DNA of 64,000 nucleotides from Bacteroidota bacterium (GCA_021812985.1 JAKAMG010000020.1:712-64711); one strand, 5' to 3'; numbered from the stretch's first letter, positions 13,505 to 60,276 are shown. Notes: generated by a model from the sequence alone, not told the origin. A program made the numbers and translations.

Positions 13505-14791
13505 CTACCCGATCACTGTAAAGCCAGTGTATTTGTGGAGCGCTTTCGGGACGATGACCTTCCCCTCCGGTGTCTGATAATTCTCGAGCAGAGCCACCAT
13601 TAACCTTGAAGTTGCAAGTCCGGAGCCATTCAGAGTGTGTACGAATTCCGGCTTTGCCTTTGGATCACGCTTGAACCTTATGTTCGCGCGGCGTGCCTGA
13701 AAACTCTCGAAGTTTGAGCAGCTCGATGCTTCAAGCCATCCTTCTCTTGCTTCTGTCGCAGGAGCAAAGACTTCGATATCATAGCACTTCGCGGCCGAGA
13801 AGCTTAGATCCCCGGTGCATAGAAGCATCACCCTGTAAGGAATGTTCAGAAGCTGCAGGACTTCCTCAACATCGGCCACAAGTTTCTCAAGTTCATCGTA
13901 AGATTCCTCGGGTTTGACCATCTTAACGAGTTCAACCTTGTTAAACTGATGGACCCGCAGAAAACCTCTGGATTCTTTCCCCCAACTCCCTGCCTCTCTC
14001 CTGAAACAGGCGGAGTATGCGGCGTATTTGACAGGAAGCTGTTCAACCGGCACAACTTCGTCGCGCCTGAGGTTCGTGACAGGGACTTCAGCGGTCGGAA
14101 CGAGGTATAAATCGTCTACCTCGCAGTGGTACATATCTTCGGCCATCTTCGGAAGCTGGCCTGTCCCGCGCATCGAAGCCTGGTTCACAACGAATGGAGG
14201 GAACACTTCCGTGTAACCATGTTTGCTGACGTGCAGATCAAGCATGAAGTTTATTAGCGCCCTCTCTAGAGCAGCGCCCTTGCCGACGTAGACCGGGAAA
14301 CCCGCGCCGGAGATTTTGCTCCCCCTGCTGAAATCCAGTATTCCCAGTTTCTCGCCCAATGTCAGATGGTCGATGAGTTTGAAGTCGAAATCAGCTGCGG
14401 CCTTCACATCACCCCAGTGCCTCACTTCGGTATTGTCCTCGGAACTCTTCCCTTTAGGAACGGACGTATGCGGCATGTTGGGCACAAACATAAGGAGCTC
14501 ATTCAGCTCCTCCTCAACCCCCTTCAGACTATCTTCGAGTCCCTTGAGTGAATCGCCTTTCGCTTTTCCGGCCGCTATTAGATCGGCGGCATCTTTTCCC
14601 TGCTGCTTGAGTCTGGCAACCTCTCCCGCTATCTGGTTACGTTCGTTCTTGATCGACTCCGATTTTTGGAGGAGCTCTCTGCGCTCCCCGTCAAGCCGCA
14701 AAATCTCGTCAACGCGATCCTTTTCCCTCTTACTGGCTATTGCCTCTTTTACCGCCTGAGGATTCTCTCGAATAAATTTTAGGTCGAGCAT
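13505..14791 (-). CDS. serS: Seryl-tRNA synthetase
   Basis: 428 aa. N-terminal coiled-coil arm and class II core ([16 protein letters not shown]). Confidence 0.95.
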
Positions 14792-14816
14792 TTTCTCTTG
14801 TTTTCCTGTCTTTGCT

Positions 14817-15719
14817 TCAGTTGATTACACCAGCTTGTTTCATCTGCCGCTTCATTATCGTCAGTGAGTCTTCCACAGTCGGCATTTTCAGCCCGAGCTC
14901 AGTCTGAGCCTTAAGGCAGACAAAACTTGAATTCATTGGGCGCTTGGCCTTCTGATTCAGTTTGTCGCTGGTCATCTGAGAGATGAGTCCCGGATCATGA
15001 CCGAACACCGCGGCGATTTTCCTGGCGAATTCGAAGCGAGACATCACGTCGAAGCCGCTAACATGATAGAGGCCTTTCGCGTTTCGCTCCACGACTTTCA
15101 GCACGGCGTAAGCAAGTTCGTCCGCAAGGGTTGGGTTGCCTACCTGATCCGTGACAACCGAAAAACCTGCTCCCTCTTTAAGTTTATCAAGCACCCAGAG
15201 TACAAAATTCTTCTTGATACCTTTTCCAAAACCGTAAAGGACCTGAGTTCTCAGTATCGCCAGGTCCTCCAATTGTGCCTTCGCGAGATTCTCGCCTGCC
15301 AGCTTCGTCTTCCCGTAATAACCGAGCGGATCGGGGAGCGAGTTCTCCTCGTAATTACCTTTCTGGCCGTTGAACACGTAATCGGTAGAAATATGGACGA
15401 GTTTCGCGTTGAATACGTTCGCGGCTTCGGCAAGATGTCCGACTGCCGTCGCGTTGACCTTATAGGCGAGTTCCCTTTCGGTTTCTGCGCGGTCGACGTC
15501 CGTAAATGCCGCCGCGTTGACAATCACCGACGGCCTGAGCTCTGCTACACAATCCATGACTTTCTGGCGCTCGGTTATGTCGAGCGAGATGAGCGAATCG
15601 TTGTTCCCCGAAAGCTCGGAAGCCACAATCGCGTATTCCGATTCCCTCTTGAAGACCTCGACAAGCTTCTGGCCGAGCAACCCGCCAGCCCCGACAATCA
15701 GAATCCCATTTTCAGACAT
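14817..15719 (-). CDS. rfbD: dTDP-4-dehydrorhamnose reductase
   Basis: [11 protein letters not shown] Rossmann motif; [12 protein letters not shown]; STDYVF. The ATG at 15719 overlaps the upstream stop (ATGTCTGA). The track start at 15746 is also possible. Confidence 0.85.
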
Positions 15720-16614
15720 GTGCTCCTGCTCTGTAAATTTCGACAAGCTTGTTTGGTCCCGCCACGCTTACCTTTACGGATGCCATCTGCATCCCTTCCA
15801 AAGCGGCAACTAGATAATCCCTGCCCAGCACGAGGGCGTGCAGAAAGGCGGCGCCGAAAACATCTCCCCCACCTGTCGGGTCGACAACATTCACGCCCTT
15901 CGCGGGAAGATAATGTTCCTTCGTTTCACCACGCGTCCGTTCGAAAAGTGAAAGTCCCTTCTCCGCAAGCGTGATAACCAGAGCCTTGGCTCCGGCATCG
16001 AGGACACGTTCGGCAAGCTGCAGGTGACTTGAAACCTCCTGATCGATGACGGACGCCTCATCTTCATTGAGCTGCACGGTGTCTGCACACTTAACCCATT
16101 CGAGATAATCTTCCCTCGGAGCTCTGACACGCTTGCCATCTGGCTCGTGCTTCATTACAATGTTGTGAAGGTCAAGATGAATTCTGCTGTCCCGCGCGCT
16201 CCATCTTAACTCACGAAGAGTGTCGAGAGTGACATCATGCCCACTGATAAGATTAACGTGAATTCCTTCAGCTGGCAGGAATGGCCTAATCTTCTCAAGC
16301 GGGGTAGGTTCTATCGGAGCCGTGCTGCACTCCCACCTGTGGTTATCATCTTCGTAAAAAAGGTCGACGCGCCTTGTAGGGGCACCCACTTCGTAAACTC
16401 CGGACATGTTCACGCCGTCCAGCTGACTGAACAGGTTTTCAAAGTAGGATGCGTCGGCCCTGTGAAGTCCCACGACCGGGAAAGTTTCGATGCCGTCTTC
16501 CAGAATCCCGCCCGCAACTATCGCGTAGGATATACCTCCCGGCTCGTTGTAGACTCTCCCGTCAGCTTTGTGTATGACGTCGATGCAAGGTTCGCCTATT
16601 ACGAGAATTCTCAA
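15712..16614 (-). CDS. PfkB-family carbohydrate kinase
   Basis: 300 aa. C-terminal DPTGGGDVFGAAFL matches the PfkB DTxGAGD signature. Substrate not assignable. Confidence 0.75.
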   Translation of the reverse strand: MRILVIGEPCIDVIHKADGRVYNEPGGISYAIVAGGILEDGIETFPVVGLHRADASYFENLFSQLDGVNMSGVYEVGAPTRRVDLFYEDDNHRWECSTAPIEPTPLEKIRPFLPAEGIHVNLISGHDVTLDTLRELRWSARDSRIHLDLHNIVMKHEPDGKRVRAPREDYLEWVKCADTVQLNEDEASVIDQEVSSHLQLAERVLDAGAKALVITLAEKGLSLFERTRGETKEHYLPAKGVNVVDPTGGGDVFGAAFLHALVLGRDYLVAALEGMQMASVKVSVAGPNKLVEIYRAGAHV

Positions 16615-29155: not shown

Positions 29156-29932
29156 ATGCGTGTCTACCTGTTTGTCCCGTGCTTTATCGACCAGATATTT
29201 CCCAACGTTGCCGTCAGCAGCGTAAAGGTGCTTAGACACCTCGGGTGTGAAGTCGTCTTTCCGGAGAATCAGACTTGCTGCGGTCAGCCCGCATACAACT
29301 CGGGCTACACGGATGAGGCGAGACTAATGGCGACGCACGAATTGAATGCGTTGGTGGGACGGATCGCTCCTGCCGGAAGAACGGATTTTGATTTCAAACA
29401 TGATTACGTCGTCGGTCCTTCCGGGTCATGCATCGCCATGATCCGCAATTTCTATCCTGACCTTCTCTCCGGCGACACGGCCCATTCGCAGACTGCCAGA
29501 GACCTTGTTCCACGCGTGTTCGAGTTCACCGAGTTCATCACGAAGGTCATCGGCGTGGAAAAATTCAAGGGGCGACTTAAGGCAACCGTTTCGTACCACG
29601 ATTCATGTCATGGTTTGCGGGAGCTTGGGATTAAGGACGGTCCGCGCGAGATCTTAAAGAGAATCGAAGGGCTCAATCTCTCGGAGCTCCGATACGCCGA
29701 CGTTTGTTGCGGGTTCGGCGGGACATTTTCAGTCAAGTTCCCTGAGATTTCGATATCCATGGCGGATGAAAAGTTGAAACATTTCGACGAGACGAAAGCG
29801 GAAGTGCTCGTGTCGGCCGACTCGAGCTGCCTAATGCACCTTCAGGGCCGGGCGAGGAAGAAGGGTTCACCAAAACGTTTCGCGCACATCGCTGAGATTA
29901 TGGCAGAAAGCCTGGAGGGAGAGAAACATTAG
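29156..29932 (+). CDS. lutA: Lactate utilization protein A, (Fe-S) oxidoreductase with CCG domains
   Basis: 258 aa. MRVYLFVPCFIDQIFP..., two CCG motifs (QTCCGQP, VCCGFGG). Confidence 0.85.
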   Translation: MRVYLFVPCFIDQIFPNVAVSSVKVLRHLGCEVVFPENQTCCGQPAYNSGYTDEARLMATHELNALVGRIAPAGRTDFDFKHDYVVGPSGSCIAMIRNFYPDLLSGDTAHSQTARDLVPRVFEFTEFITKVIGVEKFKGRLKATVSYHDSCHGLRELGIKDGPREILKRIEGLNLSELRYADVCCGFGGTFSVKFPEISISMADEKLKHFDETKAEVLVSADSSCLMHLQGRARKKGSPKRFAHIAEIMAESLEGEKH

Positions 29933-29936
29933 CAAT

Positions 29937-31316
29937 ATGGACCTCCGCTCACGGCAATTCGCTTCCCTGTACAGGCATGAAATCAGCAACGGTCAGTTAC
30001 GTTCCAATCTGAGCAAGGCAACGCTTCAGGCGGTCGACAAGCGCGCCCAGTCGTTCCAGGAAGTCGACTTTCCCTTTCTCCAGAAGGAGGCCCGAAATAT
30101 AAAGCGTGAAGCCATCTCCAATCTGAACGAGCTGTTGTCCCGGTTTGAGGACAACGCGCGCAGAAATGGATGTAAAATTTTCTACGCACAGACTCCTGAA
30201 AAAGCCAACGCGTACATACTCGGTGTCGCTCAAAAGTTCGGCGCCAGGACTGCCGTCAAATCCAAATCGATGGTGACCGAGGAGATAGGCGTCGTTCCGT
30301 TTCTCGCGAAGTACGGGATTGAAGCGGTGGAAACGGACCTCGGAGAATACATAGTTCAGCTTGCTGGTGAATCCCCCTCACACATCACCACGCCGGCCAT
30401 ACACAAGTCCAGGACGGAAATCTCTCGGTTGTTCCACGAGAAAATCGGAACCGAGCTGAACGACGATCCGGCGTTTCTCACGGCAGAGGCCAGACGAGTC
30501 CTCCGCGAGAAATTTCTCTCTGCTGACCTAGGCATTTCAGGAGCTAACTTTCTAATCGCCGAAACCGGCGACGTCGTTATAGTCGAAAACGAAGGCAACG
30601 CGAGGCTCTCCACTTCAGCGGTCAAGGTCCACGTCGTCGTAACAGGAATCGAAAAGGTCATCTCGAATTTCTCCGATCTTAGAATCTTCATGAGACTTCT
30701 CGGGAGAAGCAGCACCGGACAGAAGCTGACAAGCTATGTTTCACTCCTCAGGGGTCCGAAGGGCGAAGACGAGACAGACGGGCCAGAAGAGGTTCATATC
30801 GTCCTTCTCGATAACGGAAGAAGCAATCTCCTCGGCACGGAGCATCAAGAAGTCCTGCATTGCATCAGGTGTGGCGCTTGTCTCAATGTCTGCCCCGTCT
30901 ACCGCAGCATCGGCGGCCACGCTTACGGCTCGGTCTACCCTGGTCCTATTGGGTCGCTTGTCACTCCTCTCTATTTCGGAAACGAAAACGCCCCGGACCT
31001 CCCTTTCGCCTCCTCGCTGTGCGGGAACTGCACGGAAGTGTGTCCGGTTGGAATTGAGATCCATCATCAGCTCCTGGCGATGAGGCATGAAATCAAGTCG
31101 AAATCCGGGACTTCCGTTGAGAGATTCATCTTCAAGAATTACAGGAAGACGATGCTGCGCCCAGGCAGGTACAGGCTGATGTCTAAAGTAGTACGCGCCC
31201 TCGCCCGGACTTCACTGCTCAGGCTACTGATGCGCGGCTGGTATCCTTACCGCGAGACCCCGCAGTTCCCTCCAAGGTCATTTCGCGAAATGTATAAGTC
31301 CGGAGAAATTAAATGA
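29937..31316 (+). CDS. lutB: Lactate utilization protein B, 4Fe-4S cluster-binding protein
   Basis: 459 aa. CIRCGACLNVCPVY and CGNCTEVCPVGI ferredoxin motifs plus an N-terminal LUD-type domain. Confidence 0.85.
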   Translation: MDLRSRQFASLYRHEISNGQLRSNLSKATLQAVDKRAQSFQEVDFPFLQKEARNIKREAISNLNELLSRFEDNARRNGCKIFYAQTPEKANAYILGVAQKFGARTAVKSKSMVTEEIGVVPFLAKYGIEAVETDLGEYIVQLAGESPSHITTPAIHKSRTEISRLFHEKIGTELNDDPAFLTAEARRVLREKFLSADLGISGANFLIAETGDVVIVENEGNARLSTSAVKVHVVVTGIEKVISNFSDLRIFMRLLGRSSTGQKLTSYVSLLRGPKGEDETDGPEEVHIVLLDNGRSNLLGTEHQEVLHCIRCGACLNVCPVYRSIGGHAYGSVYPGPIGSLVTPLYFGNENAPDLPFASSLCGNCTEVCPVGIEIHHQLLAMRHEIKSKSGTSVERFIFKNYRKTMLRPGRYRLMSKVVRALARTSLLRLLMRGWYPYRETPQFPPRSFREMYKSGEIK

Positions 31317-31969
31317 TGGAAGACGATCGCGAGAAAATATTCGCATCGATCCGAAAGGGGCTGCGACAATCGGAGAGATACTCGGCAGAAAGAAGCAGTA
31401 AGTCCCCGCTCCTTGACAAACCGGGACCAGATTTCTTGTCCCTCTTTGAGAAATTTCGGTCAGAGCTTAAAACACTTGGCGGGGAGGCGGTATCCGTTCA
31501 GGACGAGGCCGAAGCCTTTGAGCTAATAAACACCCGCTCTCATGCGAACGAAGCTCTCTTCATTTATGAAGAAATTAAGTCGAAATATGCGCTGCTGACT
31601 TCGTCGCTGAGTGAGCGTAAGTCGGTTAAATTCCAACCGGAATTTAGTCACGGCTATGACAGGCACGAGGCAGCCAAGTTCAAAGGAGTTGTTACAGGAT
31701 GTTACGCCTGTGTCGCGGAAACTGGCACCGTCATTCTCCGGACGGCCATGCGTCTCCCTGCTGCTCTAGCGACGCAGCTTTTCGTAGTCGCGCGCGGAGC
31801 GGACCTGCGGCCGTCATTGGATCAAATTTTTACCGAAGATACCGCCAGATTCGGCGGAAGCAATCTCTTTCTGGTGACCGGCCCGAGCAGGACGGCCGAT
31901 ATTGAAAAGCAGCTCGTGACCGGAGTGCACGGCCCAAAGGATGTGTTCGTAATATTCATGAAAAGTTGA
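31313..31969 (+). CDS. lutC: Lactate utilization protein C (LUD domain)
   Basis: 218 aa. ATGA overlap with lutB. Size and position match LutC/YkgG. The sequence motif evidence is weaker. Confidence 0.75.
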   Translation: MMEDDREKIFASIRKGLRQSERYSAERSSKSPLLDKPGPDFLSLFEKFRSELKTLGGEAVSVQDEAEAFELINTRSHANEALFIYEEIKSKYALLTSSLSERKSVKFQPEFSHGYDRHEAAKFKGVVTGCYACVAETGTVILRTAMRLPAALATQLFVVARGADLRPSLDQIFTEDTARFGGSNLFLVTGPSRTADIEKQLVTGVHGPKDVFVIFMKS

Positions 31970-40402: not shown

Positions 40403-41551
40403 TCATTTCTGGTCCAGTACTTCTCTTGCAATCACGAGGCGCTGAATCTCCGATGTCCCCTCATAAATTTCAGTAATCTTGGCGTCCCTCAGATACCTTT
40501 CAACCGGGAAATCCTTAAGGTATCCGTAACCGCCGTGTATTTGAATCGCCTCGAGAGCGCAGTCGACTGCCACCTTTGAAGCGAAAAGCTTCGCCATCGC
40601 GGCCTCTTTGGTGAATCGCTCGCCCCTGTCCTTCCTCAAAGCCGCGTTTAATGTGAGAAGGTGTGCCGCCTCAATGTTCGTGTGCATATCTGCAAGTTTG
40701 AACTGTATTGCCTGAAATTCATAGAGGAGTTTGTCAAAGGCCTTCCGTTCCTTGACATACTTCAGCGACGCTTCCAAAGCGGCGCGCGCGATTCCTATAG
40801 CCTGAGAGGCAATCCCAATCCGTCCGCCGTCAAGCGTCATCATAGCGAACTTGAATCCGAAGCCTTCCTCCTTGACGACGTTTTCCTTCGGGACTCTGCA
40901 ATCCTGAAACGTAATCTGTGCGGTGTCTGAGCTTCGTATACCAAGCTTGTGTTCCTTCTTCGAAACGCTTACGCCCTTGAACTTTTTTTCGACGATAAAC
41001 GCGCTGACTCCCTTTGCCCCCTTTGCCCTGTCTGTCGTGGCCATCACGAGTAGTATGTCCGCATTCGACCCGTTTGTGATGAAGTTCTTCGTGCCGTTGA
41101 GGACATAGTAATCACCGTCCCGCACCGCCGTGGTTCGCTGGTTAACTGCGTCGCTCCCGGCCTCGGGTTCCGAGAGGCAGAACGCTCCCAGAAGCTTACC
41201 TGACGCAAGAGGCTTAAGATATTTCTGTTTCTGTTCGGGTGAACCGAACTTTTCGAGCCCCCAGCAGACGAGGGAATTATTTACGCTCATTATCACGCCG
41301 GCTGAGGCATCCGCCCTGCTTATTTCTTCAAGCGCAAGCACGTAGCTTACCGTATCCAGCCCAGCGCCCCCGTCTTCAGCGGGGACCATCATGCCCATGA
41401 AACCAAGTTCGGCCATCTGCTTGATCTGCTCATGCGGGAATTCCTCGCGCTCGTCGCGCTGCGCGGCGCCGGTGGCGAGTTCCTTGTCCGCGAAATCCCG
41501 AGCCGCCCCGCGTATCATCAACTGCTCTTCCGTAAGGTCAAAATCTACCAT
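40403..41551 (-). CDS. Acyl-CoA dehydrogenase (short-chain / butyryl-CoA type)
   Basis: 382 aa. LSEPEAGSD; IHGGYGYLKDFPVERYLRDAKITEIYEGTSEIQ. Confidence 0.9.
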   Translation of the reverse strand: MVDFDLTEEQLMIRGAARDFADKELATGAAQRDEREEFPHEQIKQMAELGFMGMMVPAEDGGAGLDTVSYVLALEEISRADASAGVIMSVNNSLVCWGLEKFGSPEQKQKYLKPLASGKLLGAFCLSEPEAGSDAVNQRTTAVRDGDYYVLNGTKNFITNGSNADILLVMATTDRAKGAKGVSAFIVEKKFKGVSVSKKEHKLGIRSSDTAQITFQDCRVPKENVVKEEGFGFKFAMMTLDGGRIGIASQAIGIARAALEASLKYVKERKAFDKLLYEFQAIQFKLADMHTNIEAAHLLTLNAALRKDRGERFTKEAAMAKLFASKVAVDCALEAIQIHGGYGYLKDFPVERYLRDAKITEIYEGTSEIQRLVIAREVLDQK

Positions 41552-41593
41552 TTCACTCTCCTGTTTTGAGACTGTGAAGGGTCCGCAAAAGTG

Positions 41594-42460
41594 CTACGCG
41601 TTCTTTGCTTCGTACGTGTAGAATCCTCTTCCGGTTTTTCTCCCAAGATATCCTGCTGCCACCATCTTTTTGAGAAGTGGGCAGGGCCTGTACTTTGAAT
41701 CGCCTGTTCCATGAAACAACACGTTCATTATATCAAGACAAACATCAAGGCCGATCAGATCCGCGAGCGCCAGAGGGCCCATCGGATGATTCATGCCAAG
41801 TTTCATCACTGTGTCGATCGCTTCCGGGGTAGCCACGTTTTCCATGGCGCAGAAAATAGCCTCATTTATCATGGGCATCAGTATCCGGTTGGAAACGAAT
41901 CCGGGGTAATCCTGTACCTCCACGGGCACCTTATCCAGCTTGTAGGCCAGATTGCGGACGGCCTCATAAGTCTCGTTCGATGTCACGAGTCCGCGAACAA
42001 TCTCGATCAGCTTCATGACGGGAACAGGATTGAAGAAGTGCATCCCGATCACCTTGTCCGGTCTGGATGTGGCGGACGCGAGATCAGTTATGGAGATGGA
42101 AGAGGTATTACTCGCCAGTATCGCTTCAGGTTTGCAGATGTCTCCGAGTGTATGAAAGACATCCTTCTTGACCTTGATATTTTCGGTGGCCGCCTCAATC
42201 ACGAAGTCGGCATCCCTCACTCCCCCCTCCAGCGACGTGGATTGGGATATCCTCGACAACGCTTCGCTTTTCTGGTCCTCAGAAAGTATGCCCTTGCTTA
42301 CCTGTCTATCCATGTTATGGCGTATGTAGCCCATTCCCCTTTCGACTGCGTCACGCCTAACGTCTATTAGGATTACGCTGAATTTGGAAACGGCAAGCAC
42401 GTGGGCGATGCCGTTCCCCATCGTCCCAGCGCCGATAACTGCTACTTTAGATATGTCCAT
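41594..42460 (-). CDS. 3-hydroxybutyryl-CoA dehydrogenase
   Basis: 288 aa. VAVIGAGTMGNGIA; SNTSS; HFFNPVPVMKLIE. Confidence 0.9.
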   Translation of the reverse strand: MDISKVAVIGAGTMGNGIAHVLAVSKFSVILIDVRRDAVERGMGYIRHNMDRQVSKGILSEDQKSEALSRISQSTSLEGGVRDADFVIEAATENIKVKKDVFHTLGDICKPEAILASNTSSISITDLASATSRPDKVIGMHFFNPVPVMKLIEIVRGLVTSNETYEAVRNLAYKLDKVPVEVQDYPGFVSNRILMPMINEAIFCAMENVATPEAIDTVMKLGMNHPMGPLALADLIGLDVCLDIMNVLFHGTGDSKYRPCPLLKKMVAAGYLGRKTGRGFYTYEAKNA

Positions 42461-42463
42461 TCA

Positions 42464-43636
42464 TCACCTCTCGATTAATACTCCCGTCGCTTCCCCGCCG
42501 CCGATGCAGATGGCTGCAATACCCCTATGCGCATCTCGCCGCAACATGGCATAGAGAAGGGTCGTGAGAATTCTGGCGCCGCTGGCGCCTATTGGATGGC
42601 CTAGTGCGACGGCGCCGCCGTGCACGTCAATTTTATCAGGGTCTAAGTCTAAAATCTGACGCACCGCTAGCGAGACCACCGAAAAAGCTTCGTTGATCTC
42701 GAACAGGTCGATGTCTTCCTTCTTAAGATTCCTCCTGTCGAGGAGTTTCTGGATGACTGTCGCCGGAGCGGTCGTAAACCATTCTGGCGCTTGCGCGCTC
42801 GAGGCCTGTGCCACTATCTTCGCCAGTGGCTTTACGCCGAGTTCCTTCGCCTTTTCCTCGGACATCAGTACAAGCGCCGCGGCACCATCGTTCAGCTTGC
42901 TGGCATTCGCTGCCGTAACCGTCCCGTTCCTGTCAAAGGCCGGCTTGAGCTGCGGCATCTTCTCAAACTTTACCTTGCGCGGCTCTTCGTCCTCCTCAAC
43001 CTGGGCAGCGCCTGTCTTTCCCTGGACCTCGACGCTAAATATCTCGTCTTTGAAGTACCCCTTGTCCATTGCTTCTATTGCACGGCGATAACTTGCTGCC
43101 GCAAATTCGTCCTGAACGTCTCTGGGAATATGGCACTCTCGGGCGCAAAGCTCAGCCGCATTTCCCATATGATAATCGTTGTATACGTCCCAGAGTCCGT
43201 CCTTCACCATGGAGTCGACAACCTTCCCGTCCCCCATCCTGTATCCGGTGCGCGCTTTTTCGAGGAGATAAGGCGCGTTGGACATGCTCTCCATCCCTCC
43301 CGTAACAACCACATCCGCCTCGCCCCCGGCTATTGTCAGTGCGCCAAGCATAACTGATTTAAGTCCGGAGCCGCATACTTTGTTGATAGTCGTGCACGGA
43401 ACGGTGTTTGGGAGACCCGCGAAAATTGCAGCCTGCCGGGCCGGAGCCTGCCCCACTCCCGCCGTCAGAACGCATCCCATAAATACTTCTTCCACCAATT
43501 CGGGACTTATTCCCGAACGCCTCACCGCTTCTCGGATCGCGAGAGAACCCAATCTCGGCGCGGTGAGACTGCTTAACGCCCCCTGAAAGGAGCCAATCGG
43601 AGTGCGACAGGCGCCTGCGATAACGACCTGCCTCAT
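42464..43636 (-). CDS. Acetyl-CoA C-acetyltransferase (thiolase II)
   Basis: 390 aa. INKVCGSGLK (active Cys), NEAFS, GHPIGASGAR, CIGGGEA. Confidence 0.9.
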   Translation of the reverse strand: MRQVVIAGACRTPIGSFQGALSSLTAPRLGSLAIREAVRRSGISPELVEEVFMGCVLTAGVGQAPARQAAIFAGLPNTVPCTTINKVCGSGLKSVMLGALTIAGGEADVVVTGGMESMSNAPYLLEKARTGYRMGDGKVVDSMVKDGLWDVYNDYHMGNAAELCARECHIPRDVQDEFAAASYRRAIEAMDKGYFKDEIFSVEVQGKTGAAQVEEDEEPRKVKFEKMPQLKPAFDRNGTVTAANASKLNDGAAALVLMSEEKAKELGVKPLAKIVAQASSAQAPEWFTTAPATVIQKLLDRRNLKKEDIDLFEINEAFSVVSLAVRQILDLDPDKIDVHGGAVALGHPIGASGARILTTLLYAMLRRDAHRGIAAICIGGGEATGVLIER

Positions 43637-53037: not shown

Positions 53038-54150
53038 TCATTCCATGATATTCGATATTATGCCACCGGCAACCACATCATCACCATCATAGATCACGAC
53101 GCTTTGTCCGGGTGTGATCGCCCGGCGCGGGGAGGCGAACTCGACTTCGATGCGGCCGTCCGCGGCATTCCTGACGGTGCAGTCGGCCCCCGGATCCTTG
53201 TACCTGATCTTCGCCTTGAAGATAGCCTCCTGCGGGACTTCCGCGTATTTAACCATGTTGACCTGCTCAGCGATGAGCCCTCGTGAATAAAGCTTCTCCC
53301 CCGTATCGACTTCAACCACGTTCCTTTGCGAGTCGATTTTTCTGACGTACAGTGGCGCATCGTGGCTTAGGCCGAGCCCCTTCCTCTGACCTATGGTGTA
53401 AAAGGGATAGCCCTCATGAGCCCCAACTTTCTCGCCGTTGAGTATAATATCGCCGCCGCCCACTCTTTCCTTTAGACCCGGGACTGCGTCGCGAAGGAAT
53501 CTCGTGTAATCGTTGTCAGCGACAAAACAAATTTCGTAACTCTCCGGTTTCGTTGCGCTGGACAGTCCATAGCTGGCAGCCAGTTCACGCACCTCCGGCT
53601 TCGTCATATCGCTGAGCGGGAATATTGTTCTGCTGAGACTCTCCTGAGTCAATCCGTACAGCGCATATGACTGATCCTTCGAGGTGTCCCTCCCGCGAGA
53701 AAGGACGTGACGTCCGAGTCCTTCGTCAAATCTGACTTTGGCATAATGACCGGTGCAAACATGATCGGCACCGAGACTTGAGGCCTTCTCGAGGAGATAC
53801 TCCCACTTAATCTTTCGATTGCAAATCACGCAGGGATTGGGCGTACGTCCTGCGAGGTATTCGCGGACGAATTCATCTATGACTTCCCTCTTGAAACGGT
53901 CGGAGAAATCGAACACGTAGTGTGGAAACCCGAATTTATTTGCGACGCTCCGCGCCATGTTAATGCCGTCGATGGAACAGCAGCTCGAATCGCGGTTGTC
54001 GTTCCCTCCAACATCCTCATAGTCGTACGTCTTTATCGTCACGCCAATGACATCGTAACCTTCCTTAATCATAAGGACGGCGGCAAGTGAGGAGTCGACG
54101 CCGCCACTCATGGCAACTATCACTCTCCCCTTCTTCGTTTCCGGCTTCAT
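53038..54150 (-). CDS. mnmA: tRNA 2-thiouridine(34) synthase
   Basis: 370 aa. PP-loop VAMSGGVDSS; CNRKIKW; typical length. Confidence 0.95.
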   Translation of the reverse strand: MKPETKKGRVIVAMSGGVDSSLAAVLMIKEGYDVIGVTIKTYDYEDVGGNDNRDSSCCSIDGINMARSVANKFGFPHYVFDFSDRFKREVIDEFVREYLAGRTPNPCVICNRKIKWEYLLEKASSLGADHVCTGHYAKVRFDEGLGRHVLSRGRDTSKDQSYALYGLTQESLSRTIFPLSDMTKPEVRELAASYGLSSATKPESYEICFVADNDYTRFLRDAVPGLKERVGGGDIILNGEKVGAHEGYPFYTIGQRKGLGLSHDAPLYVRKIDSQRNVVEVDTGEKLYSRGLIAEQVNMVKYAEVPQEAIFKAKIRYKDPGADCTVRNAADGRIEVEFASPRRAITPGQSVVIYDGDDVVAGGIISNIME

Positions 54151-54310
54151 AACGTGATAATTTAAGCAAAGTCCGGTGGTTATGAAAGATTAGAGAGCAC
54201 TCCGGTTCGCCTGACCAAAGTCAGTTTAGGAGTAGGAGAGCACGAGGTTCAAACACGCATTTTGCTGAGAGACCTCGCAGCGGTATTCAGCCGCGGACCG
54301 CCAAGCGGAG

Positions 54311-55093
54311 CTACGCACCTTGCCAGACGGGCTTCCTCTTCTCCAGAAATGCGGTCGTCCCCTCCTTGTGGTCCGATGTGCCACACGACAGGGCGAACAG
54401 TTGAGATTCGACCCTCATTCCCTCATCCTGGGGGAGCTGAAAGGCGGCGTCTATGGCCTGGAGTGCGAGCCTGACAGCGAATGGAGCCTTTTCGGAAATT
54501 GTCTCGACCAGTTTCAGCACAGCTGGCATGAGCTCAGCCTTGTCCACGACGCTATTCACCAGCCGAAGGGAAAGCGCCTTCTCGGCATCTATTTGGGCTC
54601 CGGTGATGATGAGCTCAGTGGCTACCCCCCTCCCGGCAAGCCTCGCCAAGCGCTGAGTCCCTCCGTATCCGGGAATTATACCAAGGTTAACCTCTGGCTG
54701 ACCAAACTTGGCGTTTCTCGATGCGATCCTAATATGGCACGCCCATGCGAGCTCGCTACCGCCGCCGAGGGCGTACCCGTTGACTGCGGCAATGACCAGC
54801 TTTCTGAACTTCTCGATCCTATTGAAGAGACTTTGACCGCGCTCAGCAAAGTCCTTTGCGGTTATCACGTCAAGTTTGCTTATCTCGGTGATATCCGCGC
54901 CCGCCACGAAAGCCTTTTCTCCCGCCCCGGTGATGACCACCGCTGCAACCTCCCTATCAGCCTCAGCTGTGCTCAGGGCTGAATCCAGTTCACGTAGGAC
55001 TGATGAATCGAGAGCGTTAAGTCTCTCCGGACGGTTAATTGTTATAACCGCCGCGCGGCCTACTCTTTCGTAAAGAATAGACTTCTGTTCCAT
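54311..55093 (-). CDS. Enoyl-CoA hydratase (crotonase fold)
   Basis: 260 aa. ITGAGEKAFVAGADI, ALGGGSELA, and a Glu-containing G.PE region (FGQPEVNLGIIPGYGGTQRL). Confidence 0.9.
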   Translation of the reverse strand: MEQKSILYERVGRAAVITINRPERLNALDSSVLRELDSALSTAEADREVAAVVITGAGEKAFVAGADITEISKLDVITAKDFAERGQSLFNRIEKFRKLVIAAVNGYALGGGSELAWACHIRIASRNAKFGQPEVNLGIIPGYGGTQRLARLAGRGVATELIITGAQIDAEKALSLRLVNSVVDKAELMPAVLKLVETISEKAPFAVRLALQAIDAAFQLPQDEGMRVESQLFALSCGTSDHKEGTTAFLEKRKPVWQGA

Positions 55094-55111
55094 GTTAGCC
55101 TGCTCCTTGTA

Positions 55112-56188
55112 TTATGCAACCTCAACCCGGCTTTGATCGCCGATCATGAATCGCTGTACCCGTGGCTTGCCATCGGCGCGCACTATTTCAACATCGTTGC
55201 CGAGCAAGCTCCCTTCAATCCGCATCCCGGCATCGATTATCCTGCACCCCCGAAGGACTATGCTGTACTCAACTTCGCTGTTCGAGACATTTGTCCCTGC
55301 TCCGATTGAAGTAAAAGGACCGATGTAGCTGTTCACTATCACCGCTCCCTCACCGATAATAGCAGGTCCCCTGACCTTGCTCCCGATGATCCTGCAACCC
55401 CTTTGAAGCACGACCCTCCCGGCGACATCGCTGTGCGGGTCGATCTCGACGCCATCTTCAATATGCGGGTCTGTATTTTCCAAAATCAACCTGTTAGCCT
55501 CGAGGAGGTCAAGTGGTTTACCGGTGTCTTTCCACCAACCCGTGATTTCGGAAAAGCCAATTTTGTAGCCGTGGTCTATCAGGTACTGGTGGGCGTCTGA
55601 AATCTCAAGCTCCCCCCGCCCGCTTGGAACGATACCGTTTACCGCCTCAAAAATATGATGATCGTAAATGTAAATCCCTGCAACGGCGTAATTGCTCTTC
55701 GGCTCCCTCGGCTTCTCTTCTACACGGACAATTTCGCCATTCCTGATCTCTGGAACCCCGAAGCGTTCAGGGTCCTTGACCTTTGCGAGCGCGAGGAAGC
55801 AGTTGGCACCGCTCCGCTGGAATTCGTCGAGGTATTTCTTGACGCCGCCGACAACCATGTTGTCGCCGAGATAGAATATGAAGTTATCCTTTCCAATAAA
55901 CGGCTCGGCTATCCTCACGACATGAGCGAGGCCGCTCGGGGAATCCTGCGGAATGTAAGTTATCTTGGTTCCCCACCTTCTCCCGTCACCGATGGCCTTG
56001 GGAACTTCATCGCTGTCGGCATTGATGACAATCCCTATCTCTTTAATCCCTGCCGAAGCCGCGGCCTCAATCGCATAGTGAAGGATCGGCTTATTAGCGA
56101 TCGGTATCAAGTGCTTGTTCTGAGTATGGGTAATCGGTCTCAGCCGTGTGCCGCGGCCACCGCTGGCGATCAACGCCTTGAAATTCAT
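55112..56188 (-). CDS. Long-form sugar-1-phosphate nucleotidyltransferase (glucose-1-phosphate thymidylyltransferase-like, with a C-terminal left-handed beta-helix)
   Basis: 358 aa. ASGGRGTRLRPITHTQNKHLIPI, then hexapeptide-repeat-like C-half. TAATG overlap with the upstream gene. Confidence 0.8.
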   Translation of the reverse strand: MNFKALIASGGRGTRLRPITHTQNKHLIPIANKPILHYAIEAAASAGIKEIGIVINADSDEVPKAIGDGRRWGTKITYIPQDSPSGLAHVVRIAEPFIGKDNFIFYLGDNMVVGGVKKYLDEFQRSGANCFLALAKVKDPERFGVPEIRNGEIVRVEEKPREPKSNYAVAGIYIYDHHIFEAVNGIVPSGRGELEISDAHQYLIDHGYKIGFSEITGWWKDTGKPLDLLEANRLILENTDPHIEDGVEIDPHSDVAGRVVLQRGCRIIGSKVRGPAIIGEGAVIVNSYIGPFTSIGAGTNVSNSEVEYSIVLRGCRIIDAGMRIEGSLLGNDVEIVRADGKPRVQRFMIGDQSRVEVA

Positions 56189-57075
56189 TATGCCTCCAGC
56201 ATTCGCTTGATTTTCAATAGCCTCCTCTTCTTTTGTACGTCCATCTCGCTTCTCAACAAGAGTTCAACTCCAAGAAGAGACGAAGACCTGTAAAACTGCG
56301 ACAGAGAGGGGTAATTTTCAAGCGACTTGAGATGTGCCATGATAACCCCAATGTCGCCGCGGGCAAGCGGTCCCGTCAGTGCGGATCCACTTCCAACCCG
56401 AGCCAAATTACCGGACGTCGAGCCCAATAAGCCAAGAAGCAAGCCCTTAGCTTCGCTCCTTGGGATAAACCTGGAGATCAGCCCCTCCGATGCTTGCATC
56501 CCAATCACAGTGAAATTGGACACGATGACGCTTGCCAGGTGGAGAGCCTGTCGCTCATCGTCGGACTTGAGAATTAGGAGCCTCGCATTGAGGAGAGCCG
56601 CAATTTTCCTGGCCATTCCCTTCGCAGTCTTTTCCCCAAGAAAATCGTAATAGATATGGGACGCCGACGAGGGAGAGTATCTCTTGGCGAACGCGGAAAT
56701 AGGATGAAAGGCCCCCGTGTGCGCTCCCGCGTCTTTCAAGCTCGCGAGCGTATCCAGACCGATGACTCCGCTGGCGTGGAGAACAACCTTCTTCCTCCAG
56801 TCAAAATCTGGCAGAGATGCAATCTTCTCTGCCGTCGGCCCTATCTGATCATCAGGAGTCGTTATGAAAAGGAGATCAAAGTCTGGTTGGAGGGACTCCA
56901 TCGAGCTAAGAATAACCGCTCCGGGCAGTTCTCTTCTAATCCTCCGCGACTCTCCTGCCGAACTCTCACTGTACACCGATACGCATCGCCAGCCCTTTTC
57001 CTCCAACGCCGGACCAAGACTCGATCCCACCCGACCTAAGCCAATTACGGAAAATCTCACCCCCTTGGCGGTCAC
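56188..57075 (-). CDS. Rossmann + DUF2520 oxidoreductase (PanG-like family, tentative)
   Basis: 295 aa. FSVIGLGRVGSSLG NAD(P) motif and a C-terminal DUF2520-like helical domain. GTG start in a GTGA overlap with the Memo gene stop. Confidence 0.65.
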   Translation of the reverse strand: MTAKGVRFSVIGLGRVGSSLGPALEEKGWRCVSVYSESSAGESRRIRRELPGAVILSSMESLQPDFDLLFITTPDDQIGPTAEKIASLPDFDWRKKVVLHASGVIGLDTLASLKDAGAHTGAFHPISAFAKRYSPSSASHIYYDFLGEKTAKGMARKIAALLNARLLILKSDDERQALHLASVIVSNFTVIGMQASEGLISRFIPRSEAKGLLLGLLGSTSGNLARVGSGSALTGPLARGDIGVIMAHLKSLENYPSLSQFYRSSSLLGVELLLRSEMDVQKKRRLLKIKRMLEA

Positions 57076-57914
57076 GAGACAACAGCCGACAAGTAACCAA
57101 CCACTGCAGACTTATCCCTTGTGGTGTCACCGGAATTACAGTGGTGTAATATCTCACCTTTCGTCATGCCGGACTTCCTTGCAGCCATCATGAGAGCCAC
57201 GATTGGCCCTCCACCGCAGGCCTCACAACGACGGCTCTCGATATCTTCCAATAGTCTGACCGGATCCAACCGGGCAACATCGTCAATGCAAACGTCATCC
57301 ATATCATTTGCAGTATCGTAGTCGTAGTAGTGAGACAGATCCGAGCTGGCAACGACTAGGGTGGTCTCATCTTTTGCCAACGCCGCCAGAACCTCTCCAA
57401 GCGTATTGCAGTAGCGCCTTTTTTGGTCTCCCATTACAATTGGAAGTAGTGTAAATTCTCCAAGCTGGAGCTGTAGAAACGGGAGTTGAACTTCCAGGGC
57501 ATGCTCGGACTTATGACCAGCTCTTGACTCTATAGCGACCTCACCGGCCGTTTCCATGAAAGCTTCGCGCAAACCTGAGTCGACGGCCACTTCTCCAAGA
57601 GGAGTGGAATAGGCCTTCCCCGAAAACACCGAAATGCCGTCGAAATATTCCCGGTGACTTGGCGACACGACAATCACTCTCTTAAACTGTCCGCGAGAAA
57701 GCGTTGCGTAGCCGTGAGCGGCGGTGAAGCCGCTGTAAGTGTACCCGGCATGAGGCGATATGATGCCAAAGGGTCTCTTGCGCCGTTCGGTGACCAAGTC
57801 CCCCCTCGCTCTTTCCAGCAAGGCCATGCACTCCCTCTCTAACTCTCCCCTTTCGGCGGGATAGAAGAGTCCCGCAACCGCGGGGGGACGGACGTAATCA
57901 CGTTCCTTCTGCAA
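57072..57914 (-). CDS. AmmeMemoRadiSam system protein B (Memo-like)
   Basis: 280 aa. RPPAVAGLFYP and ISPHAGYTYSG motifs. A TTG start at 57914 is needed to retain the conserved N-terminus. Confidence 0.8.
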   Translation of the reverse strand: MQKERDYVRPPAVAGLFYPAERGELERECMALLERARGDLVTERRKRPFGIISPHAGYTYSGFTAAHGYATLSRGQFKRVIVVSPSHREYFDGISVFSGKAYSTPLGEVAVDSGLREAFMETAGEVAIESRAGHKSEHALEVQLPFLQLQLGEFTLLPIVMGDQKRRYCNTLGEVLAALAKDETTLVVASSDLSHYYDYDTANDMDDVCIDDVARLDPVRLLEDIESRRCEACGGGPIVALMMAARKSGMTKGEILHHCNSGDTTRDKSAVVGYLSAVVS

Positions 57915-58497
57915 TCTCTCGCTCGCTCCTTTCTCTCAATCCCTCCTCGCTGAACACTTCCGCCGTGAAAACATACATAATAGCACGCGGGTCCTTGTAA
58001 TCTTCCTGCCCCAGTCCCGCTTTGAGACAAACATACCTCAAGAACTCCTCACGATTCCAGCCATTTTCAGTCGCTACCTGGGGGAGCAGTAATCCCCGGG
58101 CGAAGCCCATCTCAATTAGCACACCATGTGTTCCAACCGCGACGTCCTCGGGAGCTCCGACCTTCTTCAGGGGCGAGAGGACAGATATTTCAATGTCGAT
58201 ATCCTGAATCTCGTCGGGAGTAACTCTATTGAACCTCGGGTCTGCGATCGCTGACTTCTCAGCCATCTCTGCGACGGTTTCATACAACGGAAGGCGTCCC
58301 TCGATGAGTCCGATGCACCCTCTCAAGTCGCCGCGACTATGGAGCGTCACAAATGCTCCCGCTTTCTGGCGAAGTCTTTTCGACTCCGGTACACTGATTG
58401 TAAATCTTCTCCCACTGACCGCGGCCTCGACTGATTCTCTTGCGATCCGGAGAAGCAGGCGCTTTTCTTCTGATGAAAACTTGAAATCTATTTCCAT
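57898..58497 (-). CDS. AmmeMemoRadiSam system protein A (AMMECR1 domain)
   Basis: GAFVTLHSRGDLRGCIG motif. The ATG at 58497 (MEIDFKF...) overlaps the radical SAM 3' end by 10 nt. The track start at 58596 is an extension into that gene. Confidence 0.8.
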   Translation of the reverse strand: MEIDFKFSSEEKRLLLRIARESVEAAVSGRRFTISVPESKRLRQKAGAFVTLHSRGDLRGCIGLIEGRLPLYETVAEMAEKSAIADPRFNRVTPDEIQDIDIEISVLSPLKKVGAPEDVAVGTHGVLIEMGFARGLLLPQVATENGWNREEFLRYVCLKAGLGQEDYKDPRAIMYVFTAEVFSEEGLRERSEREIAEGT

Positions 58498-59543
58498 ACG
58501 CCCGGTATTCTTGCCGAACATTTGGGGCAGGCCCCTTCTCTGAGATTGTTGGTCGAGACCCGGTAGCCCTCCCGTTCGACAAGCAAATAGCCGCATGAGG
58601 GACAGTAAGTATTCTCAAGATTGCCGACAATGCCAGGAAGGTTTCCAGCATAGACGAAATGCAGTCCGGCCTCCCTTCCGATCATTGCCGCGCGGTTTAA
58701 AGACCTTGCACTCGTATTGTTCCTCGACAGCATCCTGTAGTCCTGGTGGAAAGCAGTCACGTGCCAAGGAATATCCTCCGACACCGAAGCTATGAAGCGC
58801 GCGAGACCGCGGAGTTCATCTTCCCCGTCATTGAAACCGGGGACGAGGAGAGTTACGATTTCTACCCAGACCCCCTTCGCTTTCAGCATTCGGATCGCGT
58901 CGAGGACAACTCCAAGCCGTCCTCCCAGCTCTCTGTATTTCTTTTCGTCAAATCCCTTAAGGTCAACCTTGTATAAGTCGATGTATGGCCTGATGAACTC
59001 GATAACCTCAGGCGTCGCGTTGCCGTTGGAGACATAGGCTCCGCGGATGCCGTAAGCTTTCGCCAGCTTCATAATTTCAACGGACCACTCACTGGTAATC
59101 AAGGGTTCGTTGTATGTCGAAACAATGACGGGGGATTTGTATACAAGTGCGAGCTCGACGATCTTTTCGGGTTCTACGAACTCGGGCATCGCGTTGGCCG
59201 CTGGATCACGGAGCGTCTGACTCGTTATCCAGTTTTGGCAGTAGCTGCAGTGGTAATCGCAGCCGAGCATGCCGAAGCTAAGGGCGTTTGCACCCGGATA
59301 CGCGTGAAAGAATGGCTTCTTCTCAATAGGGTCGAGCTGAATGCCAGCGGCGTAGCCGTATGGAACGAGGAGCTTTCCGCCACGGTTGAACCGCACGCGA
59401 CACACGCCGTCGCGCCCGGGCTTTATCCGGCACCTATGTCCGCAGGCATAACAGAGGACCCAATCATCCGGGAGCTTGCTGTACAACTCCCCTTCGATAG
59501 TGTGCTCCTGCAAGATGCTTTTGAGTGTAAGGGTTTCTGCCAT
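58488..59543 (-). CDS. AmmeMemoRadiSam system radical SAM enzyme (PFL-activase-like)
   Basis: 351 aa. Radical SAM cluster GCDYHCSYCQNW (CxxxCxxC), an N-terminal Cys cluster (CYACGHRC...GVC) and a C-terminal Cys pair motif (CPSCG...CPKC). Confidence 0.85.
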   Translation of the reverse strand: MAETLTLKSILQEHTIEGELYSKLPDDWVLCYACGHRCRIKPGRDGVCRVRFNRGGKLLVPYGYAAGIQLDPIEKKPFFHAYPGANALSFGMLGCDYHCSYCQNWITSQTLRDPAANAMPEFVEPEKIVELALVYKSPVIVSTYNEPLITSEWSVEIMKLAKAYGIRGAYVSNGNATPEVIEFIRPYIDLYKVDLKGFDEKKYRELGGRLGVVLDAIRMLKAKGVWVEIVTLLVPGFNDGEDELRGLARFIASVSEDIPWHVTAFHQDYRMLSRNNTSARSLNRAAMIGREAGLHFVYAGNLPGIVGNLENTYCPSCGYLLVEREGYRVSTNNLREGACPKCSARIPGVWK

Positions 59544-59694
59544 TTGCTCCTCGACCCACAGAATGTTACTTCACCGTCTCAACAAAGTCAAACACACTCC
59601 ATATTCGCGTGGGCCACGACGAGCCGCAGAACACGTGGCTGTACCCAATATCTTTGTCACAATAAAGTGCAGCCCGAATATTAGACTGGTCTCT

Positions 59695-60276
59695 CTACTT
59701 CCGCGACCAATCGTCGAGAAGCCGACTCAAGTCGCCCTCAGAGAGTTTACTCGATTCAGTATCACCGGCCGCGATCCGCTGCCTCAATGCCTCAAACAGC
59801 GTTATTGCACACGCTACCGAAACATTCAGACTCTGCACCATCCCGTGCATCGGGATTTGGAAGTTAACGTCCGCCCCCGCGGCGATGCTGTCGGATACCC
59901 CCCGGTGTTCGTTTCCGAAAACGAGAGCTATCTTTCCTCGGAGATCTAGATCGTACAGCGAAACCGTCTCCGGGCCAACCACGCTTGCGGCAATCGTAAA
60001 GCCTTCACCTCTAAGCGCGTCGAAGCAATCCTCAGTCCTCCTGAAGCTCCTTCTTTCCACCCACTTGTACGCGCTTGCTGAACTCTTCTTCCCTATCTTC
60101 GGCAAATTTTCGAAGGTGTAGAGGAGATTAGCCTTCCTTACCCCTACCGCGTCGCAAGACCGGAGAATGGCGCTGACGTTGTGCGGGTCATGTATATTCT
60201 CGAGAACCACGGTGAGATCCGGCTGACTCAGGCTCAGCGCCCGGGAAAGCTTGTCCATGCGCCTCTGCGACTTCAC
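59695..60276 (-). CDS. SpoU/TrmH-family RNA 2'-O-methyltransferase
   Basis: 193 aa. LENIHDPHNVSAILRSCDAVG, LVFGNEHRGVS, IPMHGMVQSLNVSVA. GTG at 60276 (GTGA overlap) or ATG at 60258. Confidence 0.8.
   Translation of the reverse strand: MKSQRRMDKLSRALSLSQPDLTVVLENIHDPHNVSAILRSCDAVGVRKANLLYTFENLPKIGKKSSASAYKWVERRSFRRTEDCFDALRGEGFTIAASVVGPETVSLYDLDLRGKIALVFGNEHRGVSDSIAAGADVNFQIPMHGMVQSLNVSVACAITLFEALRQRIAAGDTESSKLSEGDLSRLLDDWSRK

Follow-up and report, generated by a model that had tools for sequence, protein, structure and literature searches.

AMMECR1 and Memo genes are followed by a conserved string of metabolic enzyme genes in one branch of FCB bacteria

The genes of the AmmeMemoRadiSam system, which encode a radical S-adenosylmethionine (SAM) enzyme (hereafter rSAM), an AMMECR1-family protein and a Memo-family protein, run directly into genes for a DUF2520 oxidoreductase, a long-form nucleotidyltransferase (RmlA-long) and a crotonase in a 64,000-nucleotide (nt) stretch of DNA from a Bacteroidota bacterium (GCA_021812985.1 JAKAMG010000020.1:712-64711; hereafter the window). 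The six genes occupy positions 54311-59543, and the order of five of them, from AMMECR1 to the crotonase, is retained well beyond the immediate relatives of this genome. The reading that we favor, with moderate confidence, is that the block is a selected mixed-function operon, in which the AmmeMemoRadiSam core shares its expression with three enzymes that would all keep their generic roles: a PanG-type reductase, a dTDP-glucose synthase and a crotonase. The block and its two flanking gaps are laid out as follows, from the rSAM end to the crotonase end.

59544-59694, minus strand: upstream gap of 151 nt, from a SpoU-type methyltransferase gene to the rSAM gene; probably contains the promoter of the unit
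58488-59543, minus strand: rSAM of the AmmeMemoRadiSam type, 351 amino acids (aa); TIGR04337 and PF04055
57898-58497, minus strand: AMMECR1-family protein (system protein A), 199 aa; TIGR04335 and PF01871
57072-57914, minus strand: Memo-family protein (system protein B), 280 aa; TIGR04336 and PF01875
56188-57075, minus strand: Rossmann-like and DUF2520 NAD(P)-dependent oxidoreductase (PanG family), 295 aa, GTG start; PF10727 and PF10728
55112-56188, minus strand: long-form glucose-1-phosphate thymidylyltransferase (RmlA-long), 358 aa; TIGR01208
54311-55093, minus strand: crotonase-fold enoyl-CoA hydratase, 260 aa; PF00378, best NCBIfam model PRK05809
54151-54310, minus strand: downstream gap of 160 nt between the crotonase gene and mnmA, a possible end of the unit, or read-through

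The six open reading frames (ORFs) form a compact co-directional unit, in which the successive junctions, starting from the rSAM gene, are overlaps of 10, 17, 4 and 1 nt followed by an 18-nt gap. Independent gene calling on the source contig (L001, 337 kb, from an ENA assembly) yields the same boundaries, including the AMMECR1 start at 58497, and the coordinates, domains and junctions all agree with those given in an earlier note on this DNA. The best relatives of all six proteins come from metagenome-assembled genomes (MAGs) labelled Candidatus Kryptoniota or Kryptobacter; Kryptoniota is a phylum within the Fibrobacteres-Chlorobi-Bacteroidetes (FCB) group. The six genes are probably co-transcribed in this Kryptoniota genome. 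The block sequence is also found in mine-drainage metagenome runs.

The identity of the core is clear from curated family models: the rSAM scores 278.6 bits against TIGR04337 (cut-off 220), the AMMECR1 protein 178.7 bits against TIGR04335 (cut-off 99; 178.5 bits against PF01871), and the Memo protein 280.2 bits against TIGR04336 (cut-off 26; 213 bits against PF01875). The rSAM, which is 57-83% identical across more than 10 phyla, has the CxxxCxxC motif (C95-x3-C99-x2-C102) and two extra sets of four Cys residues (31/34/38/48 and 314/317/339/342), all invariant in the alignment. The AMMECR1 translation contains the LRGCIG motif, and the His/Asp/Cys positions of the Memo protein (PHAGY, SPSH, SDLSH, EACGG and HCNSGD) are likewise invariant. 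The PflA-like rSAM would cleave SAM to yield a 5'-deoxyadenosyl radical, and its putative partners would be the AMMECR1 protein, with its conserved Cys, and the Memo protein, whose LigB-type His/Asp/Cys metal site is intact. In profile matches, the characterized enzymes nearest to the rSAM are protein-activating ones, PflA and other glycyl-radical activases. The proposal in the earlier note of a small molecule, and not a protein, as the target of the chemistry finds no support in any of the tests made here. A gene-neighborhood tie of AMMECR1 to a radical SAM enzyme and a homolog of ring-opening dioxygenases was described by Iyer and Aravind in 2007, and the same work contains the sole published prediction for the system, namely, RNA base modification (PMC2034487).

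The conservation of gene order was assessed from four anchors: rSAM (species-dereplicated genomes), Memo (metagenome contigs), RmlA-long, and DUF2520 outside the branch. In what follows, R denotes rSAM, A AMMECR1, M Memo, D DUF2520, N RmlA-long and E crotonase. The rSAM anchor yielded 80 loci from more than 10 phyla, with 57-79% identity, among which D and N stand beside the trio only in three Kryptoniota loci; an adjacent DUF2520 or RmlA-long gene occurs in none of the 77 non-Kryptoniota loci. The rSAM subfamily (L010-L086) is unusually highly conserved and is solitary in 76 of these 77 loci, AMMECR1-Memo being adjacent to it in a single locus (L046), and no neighboring family recurs in more than 8 of the 77. 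Across eight Kryptoniota lineages, the trio is adjacent and the order R-A-M-D-N is retained in every case (8/8), with the crotonase gene next in 5/8; it is absent from the string in L004, L005 and L009, and in L004 the nucleotidyltransferase gene is followed 65 nt later by mnmA.

The 80 Memo-anchored loci were sorted into group B (NCBI label 'Bacteroidota bacterium'; related RmlA-anchored genomes are labelled Ignavibacteriota or Ignavibacteriae), group I (Ignavibacteriaceae, Ignavibacteriales or Ignavibacterium) and others. Group B has the order A-M-D-N-E; on contigs that extend far enough, DUF2520 is directly downstream of Memo in 13/13 loci, RmlA-long behind DUF2520 in 9/9 and the crotonase next in 7/7. 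Group-I loci begin with a beta-eliminating lyase gene and DUF4905, which precede AMMECR1 and Memo; DUF2520 comes next in 15 of the 25 loci and is not beside Memo in the other 10. In this group, RmlA-long is found in 0/7 loci, and the crotonase is likewise absent at the locus. Ignavibacteria-type loci contain the lyase gene in 14 cases and the DUF4905 gene in 18, immediately before AMMECR1-Memo in the loci inspected; in L102, L112, L136, L156 and L168, same-strand lyase and DUF4905 genes lie about 2.8 kb upstream of Memo. None of the 32 remaining Memo loci has DUF2520. Many of these other loci have a different architecture without DUF2520, in which a Memo-AMMECR1 fusion adjoins an rSAM more remote from that of the window (scoring about 230-255 bits against it); the Memo ORFs of about 500-560 aa in L094, L099, L104, L113, L118, L123, L148 and others probably represent such fusions. 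A limitation of the extension to Kryptoniota, as it appeared from the rSAM-anchored scan, was overturned by the Memo-anchored one.

Anchoring on RmlA-long gave A-M-D-N-E in 5/5 look-ups (MAGs labelled Ignavibacteriota, Ignavibacteriae and Bacteroidota, one each, plus two divergent Kryptoniota that are counted within the eight lineages above). In the sister lineages, the rSAM gene is located elsewhere, about 270 kb away on one contig of 570,727 bp (L170, identical to L030); the conserved attachment is, then, to AMMECR1-Memo and not to the whole trio. The Memo-DUF2520 and DUF2520-RmlA-long junctions are 0-17 nt or 4-nt overlaps (L001, L004 and the group-B look-ups). Insertions within the string (L172, L105) leave it together; in L172, genes for a PHP-domain phosphoesterase and a DUF1706 protein (L172:6707-8004) intervene between DUF2520 and RmlA-long, each with a 4-nt overlap with its neighbor. 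The enrichment of the added genes beside the trio that the earlier note envisaged thus holds within one FCB branch, Kryptoniota-Ignavibacteriota, and fails outside it.

To control for background synteny, 24 genes from the 40-64 kb part of the window were scored for presence within 8 kb of Memo. In groups B and I, the only ones to recur are A, M, D, N and E, and the other 19 genes are found in 0/13 loci of group B and 0/24 of group I, except for a GAF histidine kinase (1/24). Within Kryptoniota, the region is syntenic throughout (MnmA, response regulator, Macro and TPR genes, 5/5 each), and therefore the conservation of the string inside this phylum says nothing. Between Kryptoniota and groups B and I, however, it is well above background. 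Identity to the window protein in these groups is 22-29% for DUF2520, about 50% for Memo, about 55% for the crotonase and about 75% for RmlA-long.

These counts bear on the simplest alternative, that the added genes are chance neighbors that became fixed on one occasion in an ancestor and have yet to separate, with selection for neither co-expression nor shared function; under such neutral inheritance, the order would persist because breaking translationally coupled genes is costly. The linkage is confined to a single clade and so could trace to one ancestral event, the whole region is syntenic in Kryptoniota, and the repeated loss of DUF2520 in group I and of the crotonase in Kryptoniota indicates that the order is not obligatory. 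However, five genes remain ordered in groups B and I where 18 of the 19 other neighbors are gone altogether, the flanks of the string differ in every lineage, and the insertions inside it have not led to dispersal. We consider neutral inheritance improbable; the earlier note had named random neighbors as the outcome that would undo its proposal, and the statistics show instead an order that outlasts the synteny of 19 other genes.

Under the mixed-function reading, DUF2520-RmlA-long-crotonase would be an old neighborhood joined at the Memo end, already present in the ancestor that Kryptoniota and Ignavibacteriota share, if not earlier, and kept through selection for co-expression. One argument for such a mixture is that, in groups B and I, the string continues into the gene for glycine-tRNA ligase (glyS), located as follows.

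Downstream of the string, glycine-tRNA ligase gene: L170:10743-12224, L172:10306-11748, L097:12333-13811, L117:9769-11115 and L121:2788-4314

Hence the conserved order takes in a gene whose membership of the same pathway is very unlikely. In Kryptoniota, mnmA instead of glyS follows the block, and the SpoU-type methyltransferase gene precedes it; every lineage thus has tRNA-related genes at the edges of the block. These borders recall the old prediction of RNA base modification, but this may be due to chance.

The tightness of the junctions does not help to choose between the readings. Outside the block, 7 of the 12 same-strand neighboring pairs on the source contig overlap or stand within 3 nt of each other, including the unrelated pairs ManC/RlpA and EamA/SpoU (-4 nt each), MnmA/response regulator (+1 nt) and TPR protein/PyrK (+3 nt), and also PyrK/PyrD (-4 nt). 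Because unrelated neighbors in the window overlap equally, tight junctions are uninformative about a shared pathway, and the step in the earlier note from tight coupling to one pathway is not discriminating.

The added genes are, furthermore, dispensable at the locus: DUF2520 is absent in 10/25 and RmlA-long in 7/7 group-I loci, and the crotonase in 3/8 Kryptoniota lineages. In all other lineages, AMMECR1-Memo systems manage without these neighbors (0/77 rSAM-anchored and 0/32 Memo-anchored loci). The window also encodes RmlD and a set of thiolase, 3-hydroxyacyl-CoA dehydrogenase (Hbd) and acyl-CoA dehydrogenase (Acd) that has no crotonase, so that each added enzyme has an obvious client independent of the core.

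The DUF2520 protein matches PF10727 (45.5 bits) and PF10728 (72 bits), has a GxGxxG motif in its translation, and has sequence relatives in the PDB (3d1l, 2i76). The polar residues H100, S102, H124, H179, N223, R239 and H248 are common to Memo-linked, pan-linked and stand-alone groups. The Memo-linked copies share 22-29% identity with the window protein and 24-33% with the pan-linked protein; being as near to the pan-operon copy as to one another, they form no Memo-specific subfamily. Among 120 DUF2520 homologs, there are no fusions with Memo or AMMECR1. In Chloroflexota (L089), a 32%-identical homolog belongs to a DUF2520-panD-panB-panC operon, and two published reports tie DUF2520 oxidoreductases to Francisella PanG, a ketopantoate reductase (PMC4572677; PMC4207893), in agreement with the family membership given in the earlier note. 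In Balneolaceae, the DUF2520 gene adjoins a phosphopantetheinyl transferase gene and, on another MAG contig, stands alone; in a Kryptoniota relative (L005), panC lies 6 kb upstream, and no pan genes turn up among the ORFs scanned in the window. Taken together, the sequence relationships point to a PanG-type enzyme in the Memo-linked position, which would carry out an NADPH-dependent step of the ketopantoate-reductase type. A 467-aa protein (P0110), in which DUF2520 is fused to the HPPK domain of the folate pathway (PF01288), hints that some members of the family serve pterin/folate rather than pantothenate metabolism.

RmlA-long is assigned with 435.5 bits against TIGR01208 (cut-off 320.25), residues 4-356 matching profile positions 1-352 of 353, and is unusually conserved, with 74-88% identity among Kryptoniota and Ignavibacteriota relatives. 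In the loci seen, its gene is never beside rmlB, rmlC or rmlD; its place is in every case after DUF2520, within the string that starts with AMMECR1-Memo (8/8 Kryptoniota lineages, besides the group-B loci and anchored look-ups above). It would supply dTDP-glucose to the RmlD encoded elsewhere in the window; the rmlD gene (14817-15746, minus strand) stands apart, flanked by serS and a pfkB-family kinase gene, about 40 kb from the block, and neither rmlB nor rmlC is found among the window ORFs scanned. The rmlD neighborhood (13505-16614, minus strand) also adjoins his and proC genes, and rml genes are scattered in the genome. The idea that the C-terminal LbH part of RmlA-long is an acyl-CoA-dependent acyltransferase, linking it to the crotonase, was dropped because the match to archaeal bifunctional GlmU ends at profile position 311 of 393 and is below the cut-off.

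In group B, a gene for a phosphohexomutase of the PGM/PMM family is divergent from the A-M-D-N-E string.

PGM/PMM gene, minus strand, divergent from the string: L170:1669-3051, L171:4196-5569, L172:2906-4264 and L097:5984-7345

Homologs of this gene recur in 8 Memo-anchored group-B loci, and in L170-L172 it has the same position and is followed by EutN/CcmL and DprA genes.

The crotonase has the full-length fold (225 bits against PF00378) and can be assigned only to the crotonase/ECH_1 superfamily, its score of 315.8 bits against the short-chain enoyl-CoA hydratase model PRK05809 being below the cut-off of 394. It is the only crotonase among the window ORFs scanned and lies 11 kb from the thiolase, Hbd and Acd genes, which stand in a row at 40403-43636 on the minus strand; it would provide short-chain enoyl-CoA hydration for that set. 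In two divergent Kryptoniota lineages (L173:2745-5535 and L174:4268-5521), an acyl-CoA dehydrogenase gene (417 aa) is located between the SpoU and rSAM genes, with an additional AMP-binding acyl-CoA ligase inserted there in L173, so that CoA-thioester enzymes occur at both ends of the block.

Several of these observations weigh against the mixed-function reading. The survival of a five-gene order amid the loss of all surrounding synteny is the usual look of functional coupling. In every lineage, the Memo-DUF2520 junction is within about 20 nt, and DUF2520 overlaps RmlA-long by 4 nt or 1 nt wherever RmlA follows directly; DUF2520, diverged to 22-29% identity, is still immediately downstream of Memo. 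The further CoA-thioester enzymes directly upstream of the rSAM gene in L173 and L174 (acyl-CoA dehydrogenase with or without ligase) and the phosphoglucomutase-family gene divergent from the string in group B belong on the same side of the balance.

The same evidence feeds the alternative that the string is a true pathway extension, in which at least DUF2520, and possibly RmlA-long and the crotonase, act together with AMMECR1 and Memo (and rSAM), with a small molecule as substrate, one that would be reduced, nucleotide-activated and/or CoA-linked; the string would then be kept since its products are needed together. If so, DUF2520 is most plausibly the link. Besides the acyl-CoA and phosphohexomutase neighbors, this alternative draws on the conservation of A-M-D-N-E and its start/stop overlaps across Kryptoniota and Ignavibacteriota-type lineages without other shared synteny, on the 5/5 RmlA-long look-ups that fall in the string and never beside rmlB/C/D, and on the fact that, in group B, the string is tied more constantly to AMMECR1-Memo than is rSAM, the accepted partner. 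However, the string is limited to one branch; because AMMECR1 and Memo are far more widespread than it is, the extra enzymes cannot be general requirements. The inclusion of glyS, the losses of DUF2520 and the crotonase and the absence of RmlA-long and the crotonase from group I likewise speak against a pathway, as do the lack of a specialized DUF2520 subfamily, its polar residues being shared with pan-operon copies, and of fusions with Memo or AMMECR1. A pathway extension of this kind is therefore a tentative alternative, and its fullest form, one small-molecule pathway comprising AMMECR1-Memo, rSAM in cis or in trans, DUF2520, RmlA-long and the crotonase that has been an operon since the Kryptoniota-Ignavibacteriota ancestor, appears unlikely.

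The gaps that flank the block are poor in recognizable signals. The upstream gap contains a weak terminator-like hairpin (59688-59670) and a sigma-70-like site (59591-59563), which, like all promoter-like sites reported here, are consensus matches only, and the consensus may not suit an FCB organism. The consensus scan found 5 terminator-like sites, fewer than in shuffled sequence (8.1); those within the block all lie inside coding sequence, and none is in the 160-nt downstream gap, the folding of which is not unusual (z = -1.27). The 151-nt upstream gap has no Rfam family and no unusual folding, an Rfam scan of 53900-59900 returned just one sub-threshold chance match, and neither gap contains a convincing terminator, riboswitch or structured RNA. 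The RNA runs of the source study do not contain this sequence, the depth over the region being zero save for one unrelated 47-nt fragment. Elsewhere in the window, a lactate-utilization cluster of the LutABC type (29156-31969, plus strand) encodes CCG-domain, LUD plus 4Fe-4S, and LUD-domain proteins.

Conservation of AMMECR1 and MEMO1 extends from archaea to humans, and disease or cancer links exist for each. To our knowledge, neither has a defined reaction, and the bacterial three-gene system has been named and never solved. As far as the searched literature shows, the AMMECR1-Memo-DUF2520-RmlA-long-crotonase string is undescribed. Since its order is kept in the Kryptoniota-Ignavibacteriota branch and nowhere else, the string is a real but ambiguous clue to the function of AMMECR1 and Memo; as it stays with them across two FCB phyla amid reshuffling, it is one of few such clues from genomic context, and it offers three directly testable enzymes. 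Should the one-pathway reading be true, it would point to a metabolite that is reduced, nucleotide-activated and/or CoA-linked, the first substrate-level lead for the MEMO1 and AMMECR1 families. Given that the string occurs in one branch only, includes glyS and leaves an independent job plausible for each added gene, we treat it as a hypothesis and not as an annotation, one that is worth testing in cultured Ignavibacteria.

The relationships to known systems can be described as follows. The window trio resembles the described AmmeMemoRadiSam system (TIGR04335/TIGR04336/TIGR04337) in that all three proteins exceed the curated cut-offs, are encoded adjacently in the order rSAM-A-B, and keep the rSAM Cys motif, LRGCIG and the Memo metal-site residues; unlike that system, it runs straight into DUF2520, RmlA-long and the crotonase. 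PanG is reportedly a DUF2520-type ketopantoate reductase of Francisella, a finding credited to Miller et al. in 2013, and the window protein has the same Pfam architecture (PF10727 and PF10728), whereas its gene, unlike the DUF2520 gene of the pan operon, is translationally coupled to the Memo gene. The window RmlA-long is a full-length, above-cut-off match to TIGR01208 (rmlA_long) in a window that contains rmlD, but does not show the rml-cluster arrangement next to rmlB/C/D. Similarly, the best NCBIfam match of the crotonase is the Crt-like short-chain enoyl-CoA hydratase (PRK05809), from which it differs in its sub-cut-off score and its distance of 11 kb from the thiolase, Hbd and Acd genes that such enzymes normally accompany. 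The closest parallel for the string as a whole is with über-operons, that is, conserved mixed-function operons such as rpsU-dnaG-rpoD: here too, gene order is conserved without an evident shared pathway, with glyS included in the sister lineages. Classic über-operons, however, are near-universal and consist of information-processing genes, whereas the window string belongs to one FCB branch and combines an uncharacterized system with metabolic enzymes.

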